From Bacteroidia bacterium (GTDB lineage Bacteria; Bacteroidota; Bacteroidia; JAIBAJ01): a stretch of 64,000 nt of DNA. This document shows positions 4,856 through 59,084 of the stretch, one piece after another. The translations under genes and the position numbers were made by a program. The notes beneath the pieces were generated by a model, which made no database searches, had not been told where the DNA came from, and saw nothing but the letters and a program-made list of their open reading frames with translations. The first letter of the stretch is position 1; each line of letters starts with the position of its first letter. The DNA is taken from assembly GCA_019695265.1 (NCBI GenBank), contig JAIBAJ010000001.1:34347-98346 (forward strand), in the 5' to 3' direction.

Positions 4856-5010
4856 GGCGGGCCCCCTTCCGCCCAAAAGTTGGTTTCAAATCCGGGAATT
4901 CTGCAAGGGCGTTCGGGTCACGCTATCGGCTGTAGTCCTCGGCCCACTTGGCTAACGCCGCGTGCGCCTGTGGGCTACTTGCCTCTATCGTTGCCCGAGG
5001 TGCGAGTCCA
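4856..5010 (+). repeat. Family-1a dispersed intergenic structured repeat, copy A
   Basis: Begins with the GC hairpin GGCGGGCCCCCTTCCGCC. Core is GGCGTTCGGGTCACGCTATCGGCTGTAGTCC...CTGTGGGCTACTTGCCTCTATCGTTGCCCG. Near-identical cores at 15670-15827 (reverse complement), 23008-23160 and 49010-49170. Confidence 0.85.
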
Positions 5011-5132: not shown

Positions 5133-8100
5133 CTACCATTTTGTTTCGCGGTCAAAAACCTCCTTCGAAGCATTTTCACCATTTTTGAAATAGTAAATTC
5201 CACCCCAATTCCATTTCACCTTTTGGTATTCATTCACGTTGGTAGGACCTCTATTCACAATAACCCTAGTAATGGTTTTATTCGCTTCCTGAATAAGATC
5301 TTCCGAAACACCTTCCGGGTATTTTTTATACAACTCGGCCATATAATCGGCCTTGGTCTTTACTTCAGGCGCCGCCGAAACTTGTCCGTTCTTTGCTGAA
5401 TATTCAGCTTCCAATTTAGCTCTTAATTCCTTTTCGATTTGAGCTTGTTTATCCAAGGCGTCTTGCTTTGCCATTTCCTTGGCTTTTTTCTCAAATTCTT
5501 TCTTTGCCTGAAACTCTGATGCTGCCTGCCATTGTTCCTCATTGCGTTTCAAACGATCCTCGTTGCGTTGAGCCTTTTCTTTGGCATCTATTTCTTTATG
5601 CTCTGCAGCCAATCGTGCTGCTTCTTCTTTTCTCTGACGCTCCAGTTCCATTTGCCTTTCCTTCTCAGCCATTTGGGCATTTTTGGCTGAATCTCGTTTA
5701 CTTGTATCGAATGCTAGCTGATCTGCTCTTCGTTTTTGATTTGCTTCCCGTTCCGCAGTAGATTTTTCAATGAAAGTTTGTTTGGCTGCTGCATTTGCTT
5801 CCACTTGCGCATTTCTTGTCGAATCTTTATTTTCTTTTACTTCCTTCCTGTAATCCTGAGTCTTTTGATCAGCTTGAGCCTTAGCTTCCTGGTACTCTTT
5901 CAATTTCCTTTCCTTTTCGGCAGCATTGGCAGCCCTAACTGAATCTCTTATTCTAGCTTCATTAGCCAGTTGATTTTCCCTTTGTTGCTTTTCCATTGCC
6001 TTTTCAGCTTCTGAAATTTCTTTTGACAGTTGCTTTTGGCTATTAAAGGTTTGCAGGGCCGCATTTCTATTGGAATCCCTTTCTGCTTTTTGCTCCTGGC
6101 GGTATTGGTTGGTATTTTGTTTTAGGCTTTCCAATGCAACTTGGTGTTCTTCCTTCTGTCTGGCCTTTTCATTGGCTTGTGCAGTCCGAACGGAATCCTT
6201 TATTCTGGCTTCCCTTGCCAATTGTTCTTCCCTTTGTTGCTTTTCCAAAGCTTTTTCAGCTTCCGATTTCTCTTTAGATATTTGCTTTTGGTTGTTAAAT
6301 GTTTCTACTTGTGCTGTTCGGGTGGCATCCTTTTCACTTTTCTGTTGTTCCCTGTACTGATTGGTAGTTTGTTTTAGATTTTCAAGGTTTTTTTGATGCT
6401 CTAATTGTTGGCGATTCTTCTCATTTGCTTGTGCCGTACGCACCGAATCTTTAATTCTGGTTTCATTGGCCAATTGGTTTTCGCGTTTCAGTTGAAGCTC
6501 GGTTTTAGTTGCCAATGCCTTTTCTTGCGACAATTGCTTATCTGCCTCAAATTCAGTTTTTTGAGCGGTGCGGATGCTATCTTTTAAACTTCTCTGGGTT
6601 TCTCTGTAATTGGCTGTTGTGGCCAGTAATTCTTCCTTTTTACGCTGATATTCAGCCATTCTTGCATCCTTTTCCGATTGGGATTTTAGTTTAGCATTTT
6701 CCCTTTCTGCCATTTCTTCCTCTTTCAATTTGGCATTCTTCTCCTCCTGCATTTTGGTTTCCAATTCTTTACGAATTTTTCGTTCCAACTCAGCCCTTAA
6801 CGCTTCCTCAGCCTTTCTATTCTCTTCCGCGGTGGTACTTTCTACAAAAACCTCATTTTGCAAAGCCGTTCTTTCTTCGTTCGCCTCATCTGCTTTGGCT
6901 TTTTTTGCTTTCTGTTGTTCAAGGAATTGACGTTCCTTTTCCTGTTCTTCTTTTCTTCTGTTTTCTGCTTCTTCTCTGGCTTTTTGAAGAGCAGCCAATC
7001 TTGCTTCTTCTTCTTGTTTTCTTTTTTCTTCAGCTTTAATTTTCCTTGCCTGAGCCTCATCCCAAGCTTGCTGTTGGCGAATCTTCATTTCTTCAGCCGG
7101 GGTAAGTCCGGGGGATGGTTTAGAAATAACCGTTGGACTTGCTAACCTTGTATCACCTTCCTGACTTGCCTTTTGAGCAGCGGCTTCCTTGGCTTGTTGT
7201 TGAGCTTTTAATCTTTTTTCGGCTTCCAAAGCTTTTCGATCAGCTTCTTCCTGAGCAATTTGCCAAGCTTTATCGGCTTGTTCCTTTTCCAACCTTGCTT
7301 TATTCTCTGCGGCTAGTCTTTTATCCTCTTCTTCCTTGGCCTGTGCAGCAGCAATTGCTTTTTTCCGGGCTTCTTCCTGTCTTTTACTTTCCTCTGCTTG
7401 GGCTTGAGCGGCTATCAAAGCTTGTTTTTGGGCTTCTTCCTTAGCCAATTGCTCTGATTTAGCCTTTTCTTGCAACAAAAGTTCAGCTTTTTGAGCATTC
7501 TCTGCTGCCAGGCGCTTATCTTCTTCCTCTTTAGCTTTGGCAGCTTCTATTGCCCGCTTTTTGGCCTCTTCTTTCGCCTTTTGTTCAGCTTCTTTTTGAT
7601 TTTTTGCATCTGCTTCTTCTTTGGCTTTAGCTAGTTGAGCATTTTTTTTCTCCTGTTTAGCCTTTTGCAATGCCTCTTCTTTGGCAGCAGCCTCAAGTTC
7701 AGCTTTGGCTTTTGCCTCAGCAGCCAGTCGCTTTTCCTCTTCGGCTTTAGCTTTAGCAATTGCTTCTGATTTGGCCTTTTCTTCTGAGGCTTTTAAGGCT
7801 GCTTCTGCTTCAGCCTTAGCTTTGGCTTCGGCCGCTAGTCTTTTTACTTCTTCTGCTTGGGCTTTGGCGGCGGCTTCTGCCTTGGCCTTTTCCTCAGCAG
7901 CTTTTTTTGCAGCTTCTGCTTTTGCGGCAGCTTCTGCTTCCGCTTTGGCTTTGGCCTCAGCTTCGGTTTTTGCTTTGGCTTCGGCTGCTAGTCTTTTTTC
8001 TTCCTCTGCTTTGGCTTTGGCAGCGGCTTCTGCCTTGGCCTTTTCTTCCGCGGCTTTTTTTGCAGCTTCTGCTTTGGCAGCTGCTTCTGCATCCGCTTTG

Positions 8101-8906
8101 GCTTTGGCCTCTGCTTCGGCTTTTGCTTTGGCTTCGGCAACTAGTCTTTTTTCTTCATCTGCTTGGGCTTTGGCGGCGGCTTCTGCCTTGGCCTTTTCCT
8201 CAGCAGCTTTTTTTGCAGCTTCTGCTTTGGCAGCTGCTTCTGCCTCCGCTTTAGCTTTAGCCTCTGCATCGGCTTTGGCTTTGGCTTCTGCTGCTAGTCT
8301 TTTTTCTTCCTCTGCTTTTGCCTTTGCAGCTGCTGCTTCTTTTTTCTTTGCCTCTTCCAAAGCCTTTTTTTCGGCTTGAGCCTTGGCTGCAGCTTCGGCT
8401 TCCTTCTTATCTACCTCACTTTCAGCAGCTTTCTCTAGCTCTTCCTGCTTCTTTTGAAATTGCATGCTATAATCCAAGTCGTAGTTAAAATCCTGGGTTT
8501 TATTATCCCAACTAATTTTAGCAACAGGGTTGTTATAAATGGCTACACTTGTATTATCCTGTGGCTTAAACAATTCCACCACAAAAGAAAAGTCTGAAGT
8601 TCGAGCGGTACTATCATCGGGAATATTGGTTATGAATTGCAACTTTTTGGTTACATAACCCTCTTTGGAGAACTCAACAATATATTCAGTATTCAGAGCC
8701 AGCTTGTACAACAACTTCCCTGTTTCGGTGGTGGTAAATTCGTCTTCTACCTTGCCTTTTTCAATGTATTTAACTGTAACACCGGCAAGATTCTTTTTGC
8801 CATCCTTTACAACTCCCTTTATATCCAAACCTTGACCCCATGTTTGTAAGTAAAAGAACAAAAGGAACAAGGATGTTAAGAATTTCAGCCTACGTTTGTG
8901 CTGCAT
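5133..8906 (-). CDS. Giant secreted protein: signal peptide, carboxypeptidase-regulatory-like N-domain, TolA-like Ala/Glu/Lys-rich coiled-coil repeats, globular C-terminal domain
   Basis: 1257 aa. N-terminus MQHKRRLKFLTSLFLLFFYLQTWGQG then DIKGVVKDGKKNLAGVTVKY. About 260 aa of AEAKAKAEAEA..EEKRLAAEAKAK repeats with a 51-aa period, and three ~80-aa repeats (SKEISEAEKAMEKQQRENQLANEARIRDSVR). The C-terminal ~100 aa are non-repetitive. Confidence 0.7.
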   Translation of the reverse strand: MQHKRRLKFLTSLFLLFFYLQTWGQGLDIKGVVKDGKKNLAGVTVKYIEKGKVEDEFTTTETGKLLYKLALNTEYIVEFSKEGYVTKKLQFITNIPDDSTARTSDFSFVVELFKPQDNTSVAIYNNPVAKISWDNKTQDFNYDLDYSMQFQKKQEELEKAAESEVDKKEAEAAAKAQAEKKALEEAKKKEAAAAKAKAEEEKRLAAEAKAKADAEAKAKAEAEAAAKAEAAKKAAEEKAKAEAAAKAQADEEKRLVAEAKAKAEAEAKAKADAEAAAKAEAAKKAAEEKAKAEAAAKAKAEEEKRLAAEAKAKTEAEAKAKAEAEAAAKAEAAKKAAEEKAKAEAAAKAQAEEVKRLAAEAKAKAEAEAALKASEEKAKSEAIAKAKAEEEKRLAAEAKAKAELEAAAKEEALQKAKQEKKNAQLAKAKEEADAKNQKEAEQKAKEEAKKRAIEAAKAKEEEDKRLAAENAQKAELLLQEKAKSEQLAKEEAQKQALIAAQAQAEESKRQEEARKKAIAAAQAKEEEDKRLAAENKARLEKEQADKAWQIAQEEADRKALEAEKRLKAQQQAKEAAAQKASQEGDTRLASPTVISKPSPGLTPAEEMKIRQQQAWDEAQARKIKAEEKRKQEEEARLAALQKAREEAENRRKEEQEKERQFLEQQKAKKAKADEANEERTALQNEVFVESTTAEENRKAEEALRAELERKIRKELETKMQEEKNAKLKEEEMAERENAKLKSQSEKDARMAEYQRKKEELLATTANYRETQRSLKDSIRTAQKTEFEADKQLSQEKALATKTELQLKRENQLANETRIKDSVRTAQANEKNRQQLEHQKNLENLKQTTNQYREQQKSEKDATRTAQVETFNNQKQISKEKSEAEKALEKQQREEQLAREARIKDSVRTAQANEKARQKEEHQVALESLKQNTNQYRQEQKAERDSNRNAALQTFNSQKQLSKEISEAEKAMEKQQRENQLANEARIRDSVRAANAAEKERKLKEYQEAKAQADQKTQDYRKEVKENKDSTRNAQVEANAAAKQTFIEKSTAEREANQKRRADQLAFDTSKRDSAKNAQMAEKERQMELERQRKEEAARLAAEHKEIDAKEKAQRNEDRLKRNEEQWQAASEFQAKKEFEKKAKEMAKQDALDKQAQIEKELRAKLEAEYSAKNGQVSAAPEVKTKADYMAELYKKYPEGVSEDLIQEANKTITRVIVNRGPTNVNEYQKVKWNWGGIYYFKNGENASKEVFDRETKW
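5930..6650. repeat. Three tandem copies of a ~240-bp repeat inside the giant CDS (encode ~80-aa repeats)
   Basis: Nucleotide segments starting near 5941, 6181 and 6421 are highly similar, e.g. ...ttctggcttcccttgccaattgttcttccctttgttgcttttcca... recurs. Confidence 0.7.
7690..8340. repeat. About four near-identical tandem copies of a 153-bp repeat inside the giant CDS (encode 51-aa AEK repeats)
   Basis: gctttggcRgcggcttctgccttggccttttcYtcMgc... recurs at about 7861, 8011, 8161 and 8311 with very few substitutions. Confidence 0.8.
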
Positions 8907-13187: not shown

Positions 13188-13487
13188 GACTTTTAATGCC
13201 CAAAACTAAACATATTTCTATGGAAATAGTATTCCTTACAACCTGAGTTTTAGCAACTTTTCCTTTTCCCAAAAACCCCAAAAAATTAATGTGTGTTAAA
13301 CTACCAATGTTATTTGAGAAATAGGCAAAAAACATTTGTTAAATAGCAATGGCAAATGCCGATGCAAATTTTTATAATAAACCTTCCTATTTTTGGAACA
13401 AGTGCTCATTTTATGGTGCTAAGGTTTCATAAAAATCCTGGCACCTCATGCATTTGGGTTTAAGAATGCCTTTACTTTGCTAACGAA

Positions 13488-15017
13488 ATGTCTACCCTCA
13501 AAAAACTATTTTCCGATACAGCTATTTATGGTGTTAGCAGCATTGTAGGGCGGATGTTGAGTTACCTGCTTACCCCGCTTTACACCTACAACCTGATACC
13601 TAAGGAATATGGGGTAGTAACCGAAATGTATGCCTACTCTTCATTTCTGAGCATTTTATTAACCTATGGCATGGAAACGGCCTTTTTCCGGTTTTACGCA
13701 GGTGAAGACAATAAGAAATCTGTTTTTGCTACGGCCATGTTTAGCTTGCTTTCCAGTTCCCTGGTTTTTCTGGTTCTGGCTTGGTTGTTCCGATGGCCAT
13801 TGGCTCATTTTCTGAATGGTTCCGGAGGAAGTGAAATGGCCGAAAACTATGCCGTTTACCTGGTTTGGTTTGCCTTGATTGTGGTAATCGACGCCATTAC
13901 CTCCATTCCGTTTGCCCGCCTCCGTGCAACCAACCGTCCGGTACGATTTGCATTAATTAAGTCCCTCAACATTCTCAGCTATGTATTCTTTAACCTCTTT
14001 TTCATCTTAGGTATTCCTTACCTGAAACAACAAGGCAGTCTTCCCTGGCTTACCTCCAACCTAGGTCAATATAAGCTGGTTAATTATATCTTCATATCCA
14101 ACTTGATTTCCAGTGGATTAACCCTTCTTTTACTCCTTCCAGAGCTTGGATTTTCCATTCGTGACATCGAAAAAAAAATGTGGAATCGGATGATACGCTA
14201 CGCACTTCCCATTCTCATAATGGGTTTGGCAGGAATGGTCAATGAAACCTTTGATCGAGTGCTACTCAAATACCTGCTACCCTTGCCCTACGATGAAAAA
14301 ATGCACCAAGTGGGTGTTTACGGCGCTTGTTACAAACTCTCCATTATCATGAGTATTTGCGTTCAAGCCTTCCGGTATGCAGCCGAGCCTTTCTTTTTTA
14401 ACCGACACAAAGAAGGAGGAGGACGAAAAATTTACGCCCAGGTAATGACCTATTTTGTATTTGGCTGTAGCCTGGTTTTCCTGGGAACCATGTTGTATAT
14501 GGATGCTATTCAATATTTTATTGGTCGAAATGGAAGTCAGTTTCTCGAAGGACTTCCCATTGTGCCCTACCTCCTCCTAGCCAACCTCTGTTTAGGTATT
14601 TATTACAATTTAGGTATTTGGTTTAAACTCACCGATAAAACCTTGTTTGGTTCCTATATTTCCATTTTTGGAGCCATCCTTACCTTGGTTCTAAACTTTA
14701 TCCTCATTCCTTGGCTGGGTTACATGGGCGCGGCATACACCACTTTAATCTGCTATTTCAGCATGATGGTTGTTTCCTATTTTTGGGGACAGAAGTACTT
14801 TCCAATCGAATACGATTTGGGCAAATTCTTAATCATTCCAGGTTTTGCACTTGGTCTATACGCCCTAAGCATTAGTTTGCAGCCGGTTTCCATGGTATTG
14901 CAAATGTCACTCAACACCGCTTACCTACTACTTTTCCTTGGGGTTTCTTACCTAATAATTTCTAAGGATTGGTTTAAATTTGTACCCAACTTCACTTCCA
15001 ACACTACCATTTCATGA
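13488..15017 (+). CDS. Polysaccharide biosynthesis protein / oligosaccharide flippase (MOP/Wzx-like)
   Basis: 509 aa with about 12-14 TM helices and a Wzx-like topology. The 3' end overlaps the dut start. Confidence 0.65.
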
Positions 15018-15445
15018 AAGTTCGCATCCTAAACCGCTCTCATCATCCATTGCCTTCGTATGAAACTGCTGCTGCAGCAGGCATGGATTTACGAGCCAAT
15101 TTAGATGAACCTATCGTACTTAAACCCTTAGAACGAGCCTTGGTGCCAACCGGTTTATATATGGAAATTCCGGTGGGATTTGAAGCTCAGGTGAGGCCCC
15201 GAAGCGGTTTAGCGGCCAAAAAAGGAATTACCGTTTTGAATTCTCCCGGTACCGTTGACGCCGATTACCGTGGCGAGGTGAAGGTGATTTTAGTGAATCT
15301 TTCGAACGAAAATTTCATCGTGAACGATGGGGAACGAATTGCGCAGTTGGTAATTGCGGCCCATGCTCAGGCCGAATGGGTTGAAGTAAATGAATTAAGC
15401 GAAACCGATCGGGGAGCAGGAGGATTTGGCAGTACAGGAAAATAA
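15014..15445 (+). CDS. dut: dUTP diphosphatase
   Basis: [21 protein letters not shown] and the [11 protein letters not shown] motifs are diagnostic of Dut. 143 aa. Confidence 0.92.
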
Positions 15446-15460
15446 TTTTTTGTTTCCTTT

Positions 15461-15610
15461 GGCGGGTCCCATTCGCAGAAATTTTGTGCCTTTTTCGAAG
15501 TATTTCCGGGCTCATGGTCGGGCTTTCGGCGTTACTCCTCGGCCCACTTGCTAGCGCCGCGTGGTCCTGTGGGGTAACTGCCTCTATCCCTACCCGACGG
15601 TACCCCTGAG
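15461..15610 (+). repeat. Family-1 (1b-like) intergenic structured repeat, copy B1
   Basis: GGCGGGTCCCATTCGC...ATGGTCGGGCTTTCGGCGTTACTCCTCGGCCCAC...CTGTGGGGTAACTGCCTCTATCCCTACCCG. It shares its 5' and 3' modules with the interrupted copy at 31530-31771. Confidence 0.8.
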
Positions 15611-15669
15611 CTTGGTAAACTTTAACCCACTTCAGGAACTTGAAATGTTCTATCCAAAATAGTCCTATT

Positions 15670-15827
15670 GGGGCTTGCACCCTCGGGCAACGATAGAGGC
15701 AAGTAGCCCACAGGACACCTACGGCTTTAGCCTAGGTGGACGAGGACTACAGCCGAAAGCGTGACCCGAACGCCAATGCATTTATGATGGGGATTTGCAA
15801 AAAGCCAGGATGGCGGAGGGGGCCCGC
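15670..15827 (-). repeat. Family-1a repeat, copy B2, in inverted orientation to B1
   Basis: Its reverse complement matches copies A, C and F almost base for base (GGCGTTCGGGTCACGCTTTCGGCTGTAGTCCTCGTCCACCTAGGCTAAAGCCGTAGG...CTACTTGCCTCTATCGTTGCCC). It ends with GGCGGAGGGGGCCCGC. Confidence 0.85.
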
Positions 15828-15863
15828 ATAAAAACCAACTTAATCTTCAAAAAACCAACCGAA

Positions 15864-22944: not shown

Positions 22945-23007
22945 TTCTACCTAAAGATTGCCAAAAAGTCAAATGACGAATCGGCTAGATTTTAAAATAC
23001 GTTTTAT

Positions 23008-23160
23008 GCGGGCCCCCTCCGCCTTACCCTAACTTTGCTAAACCCCAAAATGCTTGCATGGGCGTTCGGGTCACGCTTTCGGCTGTAGTCCAAGCCCACT
23101 CCGCTAAACGCTGCGTTGGCTTGGAGCTACTTGCCTCTATCGTTGCCCGATGCGAAACCT
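23008..23160 (+). repeat. Family-1a repeat, copy C
   Basis: GCGGGCCCCCTCCGCC...GGCGTTCGGGTCACGCTTTCGGCTGTAGTCCAAGCCCACTCCGCTAAACGCTGCGTTGGCTTGGAGCTACTTGCCTCTATCGTTGCCCG. The central stem shows compensatory substitutions relative to the other copies. Confidence 0.85.
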
Positions 23161-23460
23161 CAACCGGTAGTTTCTAACCCAACTTGTCTTTGTAACACCA
23201 ATGTTATTTAAACCCAAAATTCTGCATTAGAAATCGTGATGAGGCTTTCAAATACAACAAAGACAGGGGCTTCAAGGTAATTTTTGGGTAAAGAAATAGT
23301 GAACTATTTTGAAAATCACAGTGGTAACTGCCGATGCAAACACTGTTTAGGCAATATATTTCAAAGTATCCATGCACTAATCCGGATTTACAAACAGTTC
23401 AAGTGCCTAAAAGAGCAAAGAGTCGCTAGGCTTAATTTAATCCCGGAAGCAAACTTCCCA

Positions 23461-31529: not shown

Positions 31530-31771
31530 GGGTTTAGCCGGGTAGGGATAGTGGCAGTTATACCGAATGGACATTATGTTTAGTCCAATTTTAGGTATTA
31601 ATTCCTATTGAAAAATAGGCCTAACATACTGTATACTCGGCATTTACCAATTTTAATTTATAAAAGCCTTCGGACTATTTATAAATTAAAATTGGTATAA
31701 CGCCGAAAGCCCGACCATTCGCCTTCCTTGGTTTGGATTAGGCACTGCTTTTGGTGCGAATGGGACCCGCC
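31530..31771 (-). repeat. Family-1b repeat, copy E, interrupted by a family-2 element
   Basis: The reverse complement reads GGCGGGTCCCATTCGC...ATGGTCGGGCTTTCGGCGTTA, then the family-2 insert, then TAACTGCCACTATCCCTACCCGG. The flanks align with copy B1 (15461-15610). Confidence 0.8.
31561..31697 (-). repeat. Family-2 repeat (about 137 bp), nested inside family-1 copy E
   Basis: Near-identical to 39965-40102. It carries a perfect 20-bp inverted repeat TACCAATTTTAATTTATAAA / TTTATAAATTAAAATTGGTA with a 13-nt loop. Confidence 0.85.
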
Positions 31772-37148: not shown

Positions 37149-37295
37149 GCGGGTACCTTCGCATGGGCTTTGCACAGTGAACAAAGTTGAGTAAGGCTCA
37201 GGTCCGGGCTATTCGTTCCAAGTCCTCGCTGCCTAGGCTATCGCCGTAGGCAGCTGTGGGCTTTCCACTGCTATCCCTACCCGGGGTGCAAAGCC
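37149..37295 (+). repeat. Family-1b repeat, copy D
   Basis: GCGGGTACCTTCGCAT...GGCTCAGGTCCGGGCTATTCGTTCCAAGTCCTCGC...CTGTGGGCTTTCCACTGCTATCCCTACCCGG. The reverse complement of 58944-59084 aligns along its whole length. Confidence 0.8.
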
Positions 37296-39914: not shown

Positions 39915-39964
39915 AATAGCATCGAAAATAAAAACTACAGGCACGCTGAAAAACACGGCAAGTA

Positions 39965-40102
39965 ATACCAATTTTAATTTATAAATAGTCCGAAGGCTTT
40001 TATAAATTTAGATTGGTAAATGCCGAGTATACAGTATGTTAGGCCTATTTTTCAATAGGAATTAATACCTAAAATTGGACTAAACATAATGTACATTCGG
40101 TG
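39965..40102 (+). repeat. Family-2 repeat, copy 2
   Basis: Near-identical to the reverse complement of 31561-31697. It ends 3 bp before the stop codon (40106-40108) of the convergent gene. Confidence 0.85.
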
Positions 40103-40105
40103 TAA

Positions 40106-40675
40106 CTACTCAGACTCCAGACATAAAAAAGGAAAACGACTTTTCAAACGAGGCAAATCTCGCTCTTCAACCGGTAAAAACTTCCAACTTTCGCCGTTGC
40201 CCGAAATTGCAATTAAAAAACGATCGGTAAGAACCTCTTCCCCTCCGGGAGATTTTATAAAAGAAGTTCTTTGTTTGAGTAAACATTGATATTCCTTATT
40301 GCAAAAGAAAATTTTACCTTTTCCTAACACTTCAAAACCACGCAATTGAAGATGAAGCGAATCCAAGTCTTGCTTATAGTTTTTGTGTTCCGATTCAAAC
40401 TCTTCAAAAACCTGAGTACCCAAGGCAAAAGGATGGAAATAAAAATAAACCGTTTTTAAATCATTCTCTTGAATGGCCTTGTTTCGCAGGTTTAACTCCC
40501 TTTCAATCCTATTTCGCAACCACTCATTGTGCTGAATCAGTGCATTGGCATTGGTAACCGAATCTGTTTGAGCATGTGCAACCGACCACCCTATAAAAAA
40601 CAACACCATTGACGGAAAAAATCGACGCAACAAAAGCAAGTAACTCATACTTTTTTTATTCAACTTAGATAACAA
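40106..40675 (-). CDS. Hypothetical secreted protein
   Basis: 189 aa with a signal peptide (MSYLLLLRRFFPSMVLFFIGWSVAHAQ). No recognisable family. Confidence 0.5.
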   Translation of the reverse strand: MLSKLNKKSMSYLLLLRRFFPSMVLFFIGWSVAHAQTDSVTNANALIQHNEWLRNRIERELNLRNKAIQENDLKTVYFYFHPFALGTQVFEEFESEHKNYKQDLDSLHLQLRGFEVLGKGKIFFCNKEYQCLLKQRTSFIKSPGGEEVLTDRFLIAISGNGESWKFLPVEERDLPRLKSRFPFLCLESE

Positions 40676-49009: not shown

Positions 49010-49170
49010 GGCGGGCCCCCTTCCGCCAACCACCCTTCTTGCCAAATTTTCAAGGCTAAGCACATGGCGTTCGGGTCACGCTATCGGCTGTAGTCCTCGT
49101 CCCCCTAGGCTAAAGCCGTAGTGGGCCTGTGGGCTACTTGCCTCTATCGTTGCCCGGGCACTCCGAACCT
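49010..49170 (+). repeat. Family-1a repeat, copy F
   Basis: GGCGGGCCCCCTTCCGCC...GGCGTTCGGGTCACGCTATCGGCTGTAGTCCTCGTCCCCCTAGGCTAAAGCCGTAGTGGGCCTGTGGGCTACTTGCCTCTATCGTTGCCCG. Confidence 0.85.
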
Positions 49171-56719: not shown

Positions 56720-57247
56720 CCAGAAAAAATATTTTGATTAAAGACACAAAAACTGTGTGGGTAGTGATAAACTAAAGGAATAAGTGAAAAAATTGATTTA
56801 GCGACGTGCTAACTGATTCAGCGAATCGGCCGCAATATTACAACAAAATTCTAAACCACAAAATTTCTTTTGGAATATCCACCAAATGCCAAAACATACT
56901 ACTACCTTTTCTGCATAAGTTCAAATGAAATGGAATGTTAAAGGACTGTTTACAACTTGTCTATTCGCTTTTGAATTCCTTTTCAGAAAGAATAACCGGG
57001 CAATTACCCATACTGCCATTTTCAACCTGGTACTAATTCTAACCGTCAGGCTCTTTTTGAACTAAACCAAAATTAGAAGGGCGGTAACCCACATTCACCG
57101 GAAAAACATAGACACCATCAACCCGAAAAATCATTTTCATACTATTTAAATTGCTAAAATTCAACAACTTAATCTCAAAAATCCGCCAATTACTTCTTGC
57201 TGAGTCGAATCAGTTTTCAATTCCCAGGATTTCTCTAATTTCGCTGC

Positions 57248-57700
57248 ATGATTCAAAGGATTCAAAGCATCTTTTTAGGCATTGCCGCCCTTTTCTTACT
57301 TTCTACCGTTTTTTTACCTGTTGCTGATATGATTCGAGATGGTCAAACCATGGGTATTATGTTGTCGGGGTTGGTTGACGAAGAAACCGGCCTCTTTGAA
57401 CAAAACCTTTGGCAACCAACCCTCTGCTTTCTGTCTGCATTTTTGGCCATAGCAACCATTTTTATGTATACGGATCGCGATCGTCAAATGCGAATTACCA
57501 AACTAAACCTGGTTCTGGCTTTCATTTTATCAATTACTACCCCCCTGATGGCCAGAATGGAAATTTTAAAAGATACTGATTTAGTCGTATTTAAATTTCC
57601 GGTGGTTTTCCCGGCAGTGGCAGTCATTTTATTGTATTTAGCTTTAAGAGCTATAAAAAAGGATGATGATCTAGTTAAATCAGCCGATCGCTTGAGATAA
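57248..57700 (+). CDS. DUF4293-family membrane protein
   Basis: 150 aa with 4 TM helices. It is the conserved neighbour divergent from rho in Bacteroidota. Confidence 0.55.
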   Translation: MIQRIQSIFLGIAALFLLSTVFLPVADMIRDGQTMGIMLSGLVDEETGLFEQNLWQPTLCFLSAFLAIATIFMYTDRDRQMRITKLNLVLAFILSITTPLMARMEILKDTDLVVFKFPVVFPAVAVILLYLALRAIKKDDDLVKSADRLR

Positions 57701-57709
57701 TTATTACCC

Positions 57710-58912
57710 GTGCGTATTCTCCAAATTTGTTCCAAACCACCTTATCCGGCAGTTGATGGTGGTTGTGTTACTTCCATCTCCCTTGCAAATTCCCTTTTAG
57801 GCAATGGACATTCGCTTAAACTGTTTTGCCTATCAACCTTTAAACACCCTTACCTGCCTGAACAATTTCCACCTCAGTTTTTAACTGAAACAGATTTAGA
57901 ATGTGTTCCGGTTGAAATTGAGGTAAAAATTTTCCCGGCTCTGCTAAGTCTATTTGATAGCGGAAGTTACAATGTTGACCGTTTCTTTTCACCACTGGCC
58001 GACCAAACACTGATTCGGATTATTACTGAAGAAAATTTTGATTGCATAATTCTGGATGGACTTTATTCATCGGTTTACCTGCAAGGTTTGCAATATTATT
58101 CCAAGGCAAAAATTATTCTGCGTCAGCACAACATCGAATTTATGGTGTGGAAGACCCTTGCAGAAAAAGAAAAAAACCCAGTTAAAAAGTACTTTTTCCA
58201 GCACTTGTCTCAAAAGCTTGAAAAATACGAACATTCCATCCTCAAGGAGGTAGATGCCGTTATAGGAATCTCAAAGGAAGAAACGGATGTTTTCCATTCT
58301 TTAACCGAAAAACCTTGTTATTGGATTCCTACCGGCATGAAAACCGGAAAACATTTGCCCAACTACAACCAAGTAGCTTGCCAATTTGTTGGAAGCATGG
58401 ATTGGACACCCAATAGCGAAGGCGTGTTGTGGTTTTTAAACGAAATATGGCCATTGCTCTTGGCAAAACTACCTCAAGCTCAGTTTTTTTTGGCGGGAAG
58501 AAGCATGCCCTCAGCCATTCAAAACATCGACTTACCCGGATTTGAAAAACTGGGTTACGTTGAAAACCTGGATGAATTTTGGAGAAAATCGGGAGTTTTA
58601 GTTGCGCCTTTGTTATCGGGGGGAGGTTTAAAAATTAAGATTATCGAAGCCATGATGCATGGCTTGGCAGTTGTTACAACACCACACGGGGCTGAAGGAT
58701 TGCCCGGTTTACCCGGAAAAGATTACTTAGTTGCTGAAAATGCAAAGGATTTTGTGGAAATTTTGTCAAGGCTTTTGCCCGATGTTACTCAAAAAGAAAC
58801 ACTTGGAAAAAATGCTCGATGTTTGGCCCAACAGCATTTTGGAGAAAAAGAAATAGGCGACAAATGGAACCGAGTGGTACTCGAAACTTGTTACAACACC
58901 CCCACCGGTTAA
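57710..58912 (+). CDS. Glycosyltransferase family 4 (GT-B fold)
   Basis: The C-terminal region (GGGLKIKIIEAMMHGLAVVTTPHGAEG, E-x7-E-like) is typical of GT4/GT1. Confidence 0.7.
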   Translation: MRILQICSKPPYPAVDGGCVTSISLANSLLGNGHSLKLFCLSTFKHPYLPEQFPPQFLTETDLECVPVEIEVKIFPALLSLFDSGSYNVDRFFSPLADQTLIRIITEENFDCIILDGLYSSVYLQGLQYYSKAKIILRQHNIEFMVWKTLAEKEKNPVKKYFFQHLSQKLEKYEHSILKEVDAVIGISKEETDVFHSLTEKPCYWIPTGMKTGKHLPNYNQVACQFVGSMDWTPNSEGVLWFLNEIWPLLLAKLPQAQFFLAGRSMPSAIQNIDLPGFEKLGYVENLDEFWRKSGVLVAPLLSGGGLKIKIIEAMMHGLAVVTTPHGAEGLPGLPGKDYLVAENAKDFVEILSRLLPDVTQKETLGKNARCLAQQHFGEKEIGDKWNRVVLETCYNTPTG

Positions 58913-58943: not shown

Positions 58944-59084
58944 GGGGCTTGTCCGGGTAGGGATAGGAGTGGATAGCCCACAGCCCCAAACACTTTTGGG
59001 GCGAGGACTAGGAACGGATAGCCCGGGCCTGAGCCAATAAAAACTAGTAACCATCTGTTAACCCTATGCGAAGGCACCCGCATA
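58944..59084 (-). repeat. Family-1b repeat, copy G
   Basis: The reverse complement (TATGCGGGTGCCTTCGCAT...GGCTCAGGCCCGGGCTATCCGTTCCTAGTCCTCGCCCC...CTGTGGGCTATCCACTCCTATCCCTACCCGG) aligns with copy D. Confidence 0.8.

Follow-up and report, generated by a model that had tools for sequence, protein, structure and literature searches.

A 137-nt intergenic repeat of a Bacteroidia bacterium as a very probable miniature transposon mobilised in trans at TWA targets

Non-coding miniature transposons (MITEs) of prokaryotes have been described and reviewed (PMC10969869; PMC9769881; PMC4596501), those of Bacteroidota among them (PMC9769881, PMC4596501), and the insertion of small repeats into one another has been documented for BOX, RUP, and SPRITE (PMC10969869). 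PIF/Harbinger elements, which are relatives of bacterial IS5, are known to make TWA (TTA or TAA) duplications (PMC4482050). The repeat analysed in this study resembles the Correia/NEMIS elements of Neisseria, RUP of S. pneumoniae, ERIC, MITECca01 of Cardinium, and the MITEs of P. gingivalis in its size, inverted repeats, and AT-rich duplication, and also in having tens of near-identical intergenic copies with a strong hairpin potential. It differs from them in forming two side-by-side hairpins, not one long end-to-end hairpin, and from the Correia/RUP/IS630 type in duplicating the 3 bp of TWA, where that type duplicates TA. The 3-bp duplication restricted to TTA/TAA, a hallmark of the PIF/Harbinger elements (PMC4482050), is what it has in common with the group made up of these transposons of eukaryotes, the Tourist-type MITEs, and the related IS5 family. 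No description of this MITE family was found in the literature. The repeat has all the structural features of a MITE (a size below 300 bp, a non-coding sequence, terminal inverted repeats, a target duplication, and dispersed copies) except a demonstrated parent IS, and we consider it very likely that it is a non-coding miniature transposon mobilised in trans, which inserts at TWA between genes.

The window, which is the whole stretch of 64,000 nucleotides that was analysed, contains two full copies of the repeat, both of 137 nt and on opposite strands, as an earlier note on this DNA had described. Copy A is located at 31561–31697 on the minus strand, with hairpin 1 at 31645–31697 and hairpin 2 at 31561–31641, and copy B at 39966–40102 on the plus strand, with hairpin 1 at 39966–40018 and hairpin 2 at 40022–40102; these refined limits leave out the duplicated trinucleotides. 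The perfect 20-bp inverted repeat that had been ascribed to each copy is present in copy A, whereas in copy B the 3' arm reads TTTATAAATTTAGATTGGTA and has two mismatches. The element ends given earlier, ...CATAATGT(C/A)CATTCGGT(A/G) followed by TAACT, were correct by alignment. The two copies are inverted repeats 8.3 kb apart and differ at only 4 of the 137 positions (44, 46, 128, and 137). A repeat search of the window returned them as inverted arms of 146 nt (31556–31701 and 39962–40107; 97% complementary), the length in excess of 137 nt being due to the TWA trinucleotides at the flanks and to a few bases that match by chance. Pairwise alignment indicated that the identity drops sharply just beyond the element and that the flanks are unrelated; the copies neither flank nor belong to a larger duplication, an arrangement that would have spoken against insertion. 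For a 24-mer and a 20-mer of the element, about 0 chance matches each were expected in the window. Both copies are positioned between convergent genes, copy A between those for an S15 peptidase and a UvrD-like helicase and copy B between those for an OprD-like porin and a hypothetical protein of 189 amino acids.

The element is 137–138 nt long (127 nt in one subfamily) and has a G+C content of 28%, compared with 41% for the window and 59% for the family-1 repeat that hosts copy A, and it contains no ORF. Its fold consists of two adjacent hairpins (about 53 and 81 nt) and has a z-score of about −6 as RNA or DNA. Over their outer 26 nt, the two ends are imperfect inverted repeats of each other, TACCAATTTTAATTTATAAATAGTCC and TACCGAATGGACAT(A/T)ATGT(A/T)TAGTCC, with matches at 17 of 26 positions in all three subfamilies, a level that no more than 5 of 20000 shuffles attained. 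This terminal inverted repeat is weak, and pairing occurs mainly within each half and not between the ends: each end pairs locally with an internal inverted copy of itself to give hairpins 1 and 2. The two-hairpin fold is kept in the three subfamilies, the hairpin-2 sequences of which differ (z −5.2 to −8.3), and it is lost in an old copy (L028b; z −2.1). Thus, the structure is maintained in the transposing lineage and not at individual sites. Old copies decay neutrally, as represented by L028b.

To follow the family beyond the window, where the earlier note had proposed a search, contigs of other genomes and metagenomes were scanned. An exact 22-mer from hairpin 2 had no match in representative-genome contigs, indicating that the source species is not among them. 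A degenerate 24-mer, varied at the positions that differ between the window and a metagenome copy (L013), matched 28 loci, of which 23 were in OZ260106.1, the 4.43-Mb chromosome of the metagenome-assembled genome (MAG) CRY1-m2-bin03 ("Bacteroidia bacterium"), three were in a "Sediminibacterium" contig, and two were chance matches. The copies were numerous: OZ260106.1 holds at least 24 that match the pattern and five more that are diverged or partial, the metagenome contig L013 holds another, and the flanks differ from copy to copy. BLAST within the matched loci revealed extra copies of diverged, partial, and tandem-recombinant form. Three subfamilies were distinguished: that of the window, a main one of 138 nt, and one of 127 nt in which hairpin 2 has another sequence but the same fold. 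With a 20-mer of the 5' end, 24 of 25 loci in metagenome contigs were chance AT-rich matches without the second arm, a TWA flank, or the partner end; scans of viral contigs with both element ends gave only chance matches, and a plasmid collection gave no match to the element.

Two decayed relics of the family were also detected on the plus strand of the window. One (13302–13401) has a hairpin-1-like part, TACCAATGTTATTTGAGAAATAGGC..., followed by AATGCCGA, and scored 64 against 32.5 ± 6 for shuffles; the other (23279–23398), containing ...GGTAACTGCCGATGCAAACACTGTTTAGGCAA..., is nearest to the 127-nt subfamily and scored 78 against 27.4 ± 5.3. Their presence indicates that the family has long been resident in this lineage. 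Window and MAG copies of the element are 85–88% identical, as against only 71–74% at the DNA level for orthologous genes; the difference is compatible with constraint acting on the lineage that transposes or with horizontal spread. The orthologue pairs compared were window 13539–15442 with L053 1–1903 and window 57240–58753 with L046 7024–5511; the intergenic regions downstream of both pairs contain different repeats in the two genomes. The "Sediminibacterium sp. CRY1-m2-bin07" contig (CBDIPL010000005.1) is 99.8–100% identical to OZ260106.1 over 2.6–7.7 kb (L028=L049, L034=L040, and L035=L029), being one sequence deposited in two MAGs of one sample. Among the variant copies, that at L027 3694–3908 is a partial tandem duplication recombined at an internal 8-nt repeat, CCAATTTT, and that at L050 546–643 has hairpin 1 collapsed to TACCAATTTAGATTGGTA.

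Target-site duplications of TA or TAA, which had been suggested as a mark of insertion, were evaluated by scoring the flanks with the element defined as TACC...GGTA. TTA was present on both sides of 11 copies and TAA on both sides of eight, copy B being one of these; two copies had one mismatch between the sides, and three events (window copy A, L031, and the L013/L042/L047 group) fitted a 2-bp TA duplication. A perfect 3-bp duplication was accordingly present in 19 of about 24 full copies and absent in five, including copy A. Because TWA occurs at 4.2% of positions, a matching pair would arise by chance with a probability of about 9e-4 (about 0.09%) per copy. No target consensus was found beyond TWA. 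The TAACT that follows both window copies, previously thought to represent a target preference or a short shared terminal sequence, is indeed present but is not a terminal sequence; it is the TAA duplication plus a coincidence, and the preference extends only to TWA. The duplicated TAA of copy B occupies 39963–39965 and 40103–40105, the latter abutting the stop codon (40106–40108, minus strand) of the ORF 40106–40675, which agrees with the earlier remark that the copy ends 3 bp from the stop of this gene. It was also observed that copy B directly adjoins a TAG stop.

Empty sites, for which the earlier note had called as well, were identified in several forms, and the uninterrupted targets hold a single TTA. 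As paralogous empty sites, TTTACAACTGGTTAATCG occurs uninterrupted 12 times in the loci, compared with ...CTGGTTA-element-TTAATCG in L027, and L046 has GCTTTCGCTAGTACTCCTCGG, compared with GCTAGTT-element-TACTCC in L042 and L047. In L051, the element lies in the tip helix of a family-1 copy, and when it is taken out together with one TTA, this helix, in which nine paralogues show compensatory changes, is again perfectly paired. An orthologous empty site was found at L055, in a more distant relative (67% protein identity), where both flanking genes are kept and the element is missing; the spacer is 55 nt there and 191 nt in the window, or 51 nt when the element and one duplicated trinucleotide (TAA) are subtracted. 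Presence/absence polymorphism between close strains was not found, the nearest relatives being only 67–76% identical at the protein level. Taken together, the TWA duplications, the unrelated flanks, and the empty sites indicate insertion by transposition, and the claim of MITE-like mobility, with a small non-coding repeat mobilised in trans, is supported by them and by the number of copies.

All of the 28 copies examined were located outside ORFs of at least 130 amino acids, i.e., they were intergenic, and 14 of 24 were between convergent ORFs. In four MAG copies (L028a, L034, L039, and L046), the neighbouring ORF ends in the duplicated TAA, so that its stop codon is regenerated by the insertion (L028 1858–1860, L034 6669–6671, L039 3127–3129, and L046 4548–4550).

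With respect to the mechanism, a transposase encoded elsewhere would bind the element ends and cut TWA (TTA or TAA) with a 3-nt stagger, or occasionally with a 2-nt stagger at TA, whereupon the element would be joined in and gap repair would duplicate the trinucleotide. Surviving copies are confined to intergenic DNA, in many cases where two 3' ends converge, and sometimes a TAA stop codon is the target, with the duplication regenerating the stop. Copy B is an ordinary insertion with a TAA duplication. From the TWA duplication alone, we infer that the trans-acting enzyme would be a DDE transposase of the IS5/PIF-Harbinger type. The IS5-family subgroups IS1031, ISL2, and IS427 make 2–4-bp duplications according to the ISfinder family tables, a range that would accommodate both the 3-bp and the 2-bp events of this family. 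Their termini typically start with GG or GA, whereas those of the MITE start with TACC, and neither an IS5-like transposase nor an IS with matching ends was found.

The autonomous IS that had been expected from its terminal inverted repeats was not detected in the window or in 462 kb of related loci. A Pfam analysis of 17 window ORFs, including all candidates of 250–450 amino acids, returned housekeeping proteins and no transposase, and no TnpA(Y1), TnpB, or RAYT-like gene was present among the window ORFs tested. A fuzzy search of the loci, covering about 200 kb around the MAG copies, found no solo ends; a 12-mer-seeded search found no IS-like inverted-repeat pairs spaced 0.6–3.5 kb apart in all loci; and an all-against-all megablast of the loci for repeats longer than 250 nt returned other short repeats only and no IS. 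A tblastn search with an approximate IS5 InsH query sequence gave no match in the 462 kb.

Several other classes were compared and rejected. A MITE of the IS630/Tc1-mariner kind (Correia or RUP type, TA only) does not agree with a right flank that begins with TTA in 11 copies and a left flank that ends with TAA in eight, neither of which could arise from duplicating TA alone unless variable bases were added, and a TA-only duplication fits just three events (window copy A, L031, and L042/L047). REPs are usually G+C-rich imperfect palindromes of 20–40 nt that make no duplications and are associated with RAYT. The present element is 137 nt long, has 28% G+C and duplications, and is accompanied by no RAYT-like gene among the window ORFs tested; what it has in common with REP/BIME and with palindrome-associated elements of the IS200/IS605 type (PATEs) is the hairpins at the ends, the intergenic location, and the high copy number, while the target duplication is absent there. 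Readings as an attC-like or IS110-like element are ruled out by the duplicated, variable TWA and the unrelated flanks, and that as a known Rfam RNA family by the lack of a match at the gathering threshold.

Copy A was reported earlier to be nested in a repeat of family 1. Alignment with the intact family-1b copy B1 (15461–15610, plus strand; aligned over 15455–15612), which serves as the paralogous reference for the copy A site, confirmed that the family-1 sequence is identical up to ...GGGCTTTCGGCGTTA and again from TAACTGCC... and that the centre of B1 is absent around copy A. The family-1b repeat is split into a 3' (right) part at 31530–31557 (minus strand; ...ACTGCCACTATCCCTACCCGGCTAAACCCC) and a 5' (left) part at 31701–31771 (minus strand; GGCGGGTCCCATTCGC...GGTCGGGCTTTCGGCG), and about 40 nt of the centre of B1 are missing between them. 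In B1, GTTAC of the left arm pairs with GTAAC of the right arm at corresponding stem positions, and copy A is joined to the TTA of the former and the TAA of the latter. On the plus strand, its flanks are TTA at 31558–31560, which reads TAA at the 3' side of the element and has no direct-repeat match to the other flank, and TAA at 31698–31700, which reads TTA at the 5' side. Thus, copy A does lie within a family-1b repeat, but the nesting is not clean: with about 40 nt of the centre missing, it is an insertion plus a deletion and not simple nesting.

Copy A entered the family-1 stem at the paired GTTAC/GTAAC, and the tip of about 40 nt was lost at or after insertion, most likely by one of two routes. 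Since its left junction is that of an insertion at the left site and its right junction that of an insertion at the right site, the simplest history would be that each site received an insertion in the same orientation and that the two insertions then recombined; a single insertion with a later deletion would be equally possible. As copy A has no perfect 3-bp duplication, its own insertion event is not cleanly reconstructible. A family-1 copy that was already tip-less (GGCGTTAACTGCC) before insertion is unsupported, all 36 of 36 uninterrupted family-1 copies having kept the centre. An inversion between copies A and B as the cause of the mismatched flanks was also rejected, because swapping the inner flanks repairs A but breaks B and because the halves of one family-1 copy still flank copy A. 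Integration into an extruded hairpin is not favoured as the cause of the tip loss, as the tip would then lie between two inverted copies, which were not seen. At the loci orthologous to that of copy A, L058 (76% amino acid identity) carries a family-1 copy that is oppositely oriented, and its synteny is lost, and L063 (56%) shows no synteny with the copy A locus. Clean insertions into family 1 occur elsewhere (L051 and L042/L047), so that the general point about nesting stands. Insertions in family 1 account for 3–4 of about 24 events, which is no higher than the share of family 1 in intergenic DNA; no special affinity beyond TWA is needed.

It could be supposed that an uncharacterised enzyme recognises hairpin DNA and integrates into the stem or cruciform, or that gene-end copies, including those that regenerate TAA stops, have been recruited as 3'-end modules. 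These readings are motivated by the lack of a partner in 462 kb, by the internal pairing of the ends, by the identity of 85–88% against 71–74% for genes between two genera, and by the replacement of a hairpin tip at GTTAC/GTAAC by copy A with its inverted TTA and TAA flanks. We regard them as unlikely and retain the trans-mobilised MITE as the preferred reading.

It is still less likely that the element is a structured RNA or DNA module maintained by the host (a 3'-UTR stabiliser, a terminator, or a small RNA gene, for example) and was copied to gene ends for its usefulness, not as a selfish transposon. The location of both window copies and 14 of 24 MAG copies between convergent gene ends would suit such a module, as would the very stable fold (z −5.9) and the conservation of the element between genomes (85–88%, with orthologues at 71–74%). 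However, a consensus scan found no hairpin-plus-T-run terminator on either strand of the element, and the earlier proposal that copy B may supply the terminator of the gene at 40106–40675 thereby received no support. Rfam gave no match in the whole window, and its local E-value search returned only chance miRNA-hairpin matches (E > 0.1; 16–19 bits against thresholds of at least 90). Furthermore, old copies, such as L028b and the window relics, decay and lose the fold, the element faces the TTA/TAA target in both orientations (11 to 8), and the duplicated trinucleotides and unrelated flanks require transposition for the spread. A secondary use of individual copies by the host is possible.

A PATE of the IS200/IS605 type, which would move as a single strand by an HUH transposase recognising subterminal hairpins and insert 3' of a fixed short sequence (one tetra- or pentanucleotide), is highly improbable. 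Two strong hairpins are placed at the element ends and the left flank always ends with TTA or TAA, as would be expected of it, but IS200/IS605 elements make no duplication and use one fixed left flank and an arbitrary right flank, whereas here the two flanks agree in 19 copies, with TTA as the target in some and TAA in others, uninterrupted targets hold a single TTA, and no TnpA(Y1) or TnpB was found among the window ORFs tested. The idea that the repeat is the variable central module of family 1, the two families being one conserved composite element without empty sites or other copies, draws on the location of window copy A, L013, L042, L047, and L051 inside family-1 copies and on the junction GCTAGTT/TACC common to L013, L042, and L047 (a duplicated composite, or one locus in related strains), but it is refuted for the family as a whole, to the point of being hardly credible, by about 20 copies, including window copy B, without family-1 sequence at either flank, by insertions into family 1 at three different positions, by the 36 uninterrupted family-1 copies that carry a centre of their own (51–65 nt, 130 nt in one), and by a share of 3–4 of about 24 events in family 1, roughly as the intergenic share predicts.

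Few MITEs have been characterised in Bacteroidota, and the repeat provides this phylum with a further family, which is apparently undescribed and has a TWA duplication of the Tourist-like kind. In annotation, both window loci should be labelled as mobile-element insertions and not as regulatory RNAs or terminators. The copies mark sites where recombination can rearrange the genome, the window pair being inverted and 8.3 kb apart. No general principle is changed by these findings, as nested small repeats and MITEs mobilised in trans are already well known.

The family also explains breaks or mis-joins of short-read assemblies at its copies (L001, L057, and L013). The element and its duplications amount to 143 nt, which exceeds the k of 141. 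A short-read contig of the source population (L001) ends inside copy A, and another (L057) joins copy B to another flank, thereby giving a third junction in the source population, which indicates at least one more locus or a rearrangement. Contigs that break or switch partner in the element (L001 and L057) are as expected for a dispersed repeat. L057 791–1422 compared with the window from 39963, and L013 1021–1996 compared with L047, are identical up to the MITE end and then continue in different sequence; these switches could reflect either recombination between copies or a chimeric short-read assembly.

Family 1, the host of copy A, is a G+C-rich repeat of about 150 nt and is extremely abundant, with 39 copies returned by a motif search over about 260 kb. 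In the window, it occurs, apart from B1 (15461–15610), at 4902–5000, 15681–15840, 23002–23149, 37180–37284, 49065–49156, and 58953–59080, and further copies are present in L027–L058. Its centre, which is 51–65 nt long in each of the 36 MITE-free copies but for one of 130 nt, forms a variable hairpin bordered by the conserved motifs TCCTC and TGTGGG. The scaffold of the family is conserved and its tip hairpin hypervariable; one subtype shows changes on both sides of 6 of its 14 tip pairs, 99.2% of the cells being paired, and a covariation score that none of 500 shuffles reached. Family 1 has no Rfam match, and it may be more interesting than the MITE.

Other repeats were also observed. A third family (...ATTGATTTACAACTGGTTAATCGTTTATGCATTTCTAATGC...) occurs 12 times in the loci L029, L031, L033, L038, L048, L050, L051, L052, and L058 (for example, at L058 6330–6420); the MITE is inserted into this repeat at L027 and lies directly beside a copy of it at L052. 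Further non-coding repeats of 250–430 nt are common to L042, L046, and L039 and to L052 and L053. Finally, a long, low-complexity ORF on the minus strand of the window (5133–8906; 1257 amino acids) contains coding repeats within 5890–8354: a pair spaced by 252 nt is present at 5890–6383, and tandem repeats with a 153-nt period, in the form of five in-register copies of a 248-nt unit, are present at 7648–8354, the three best copies being 88–90% identical to each other.
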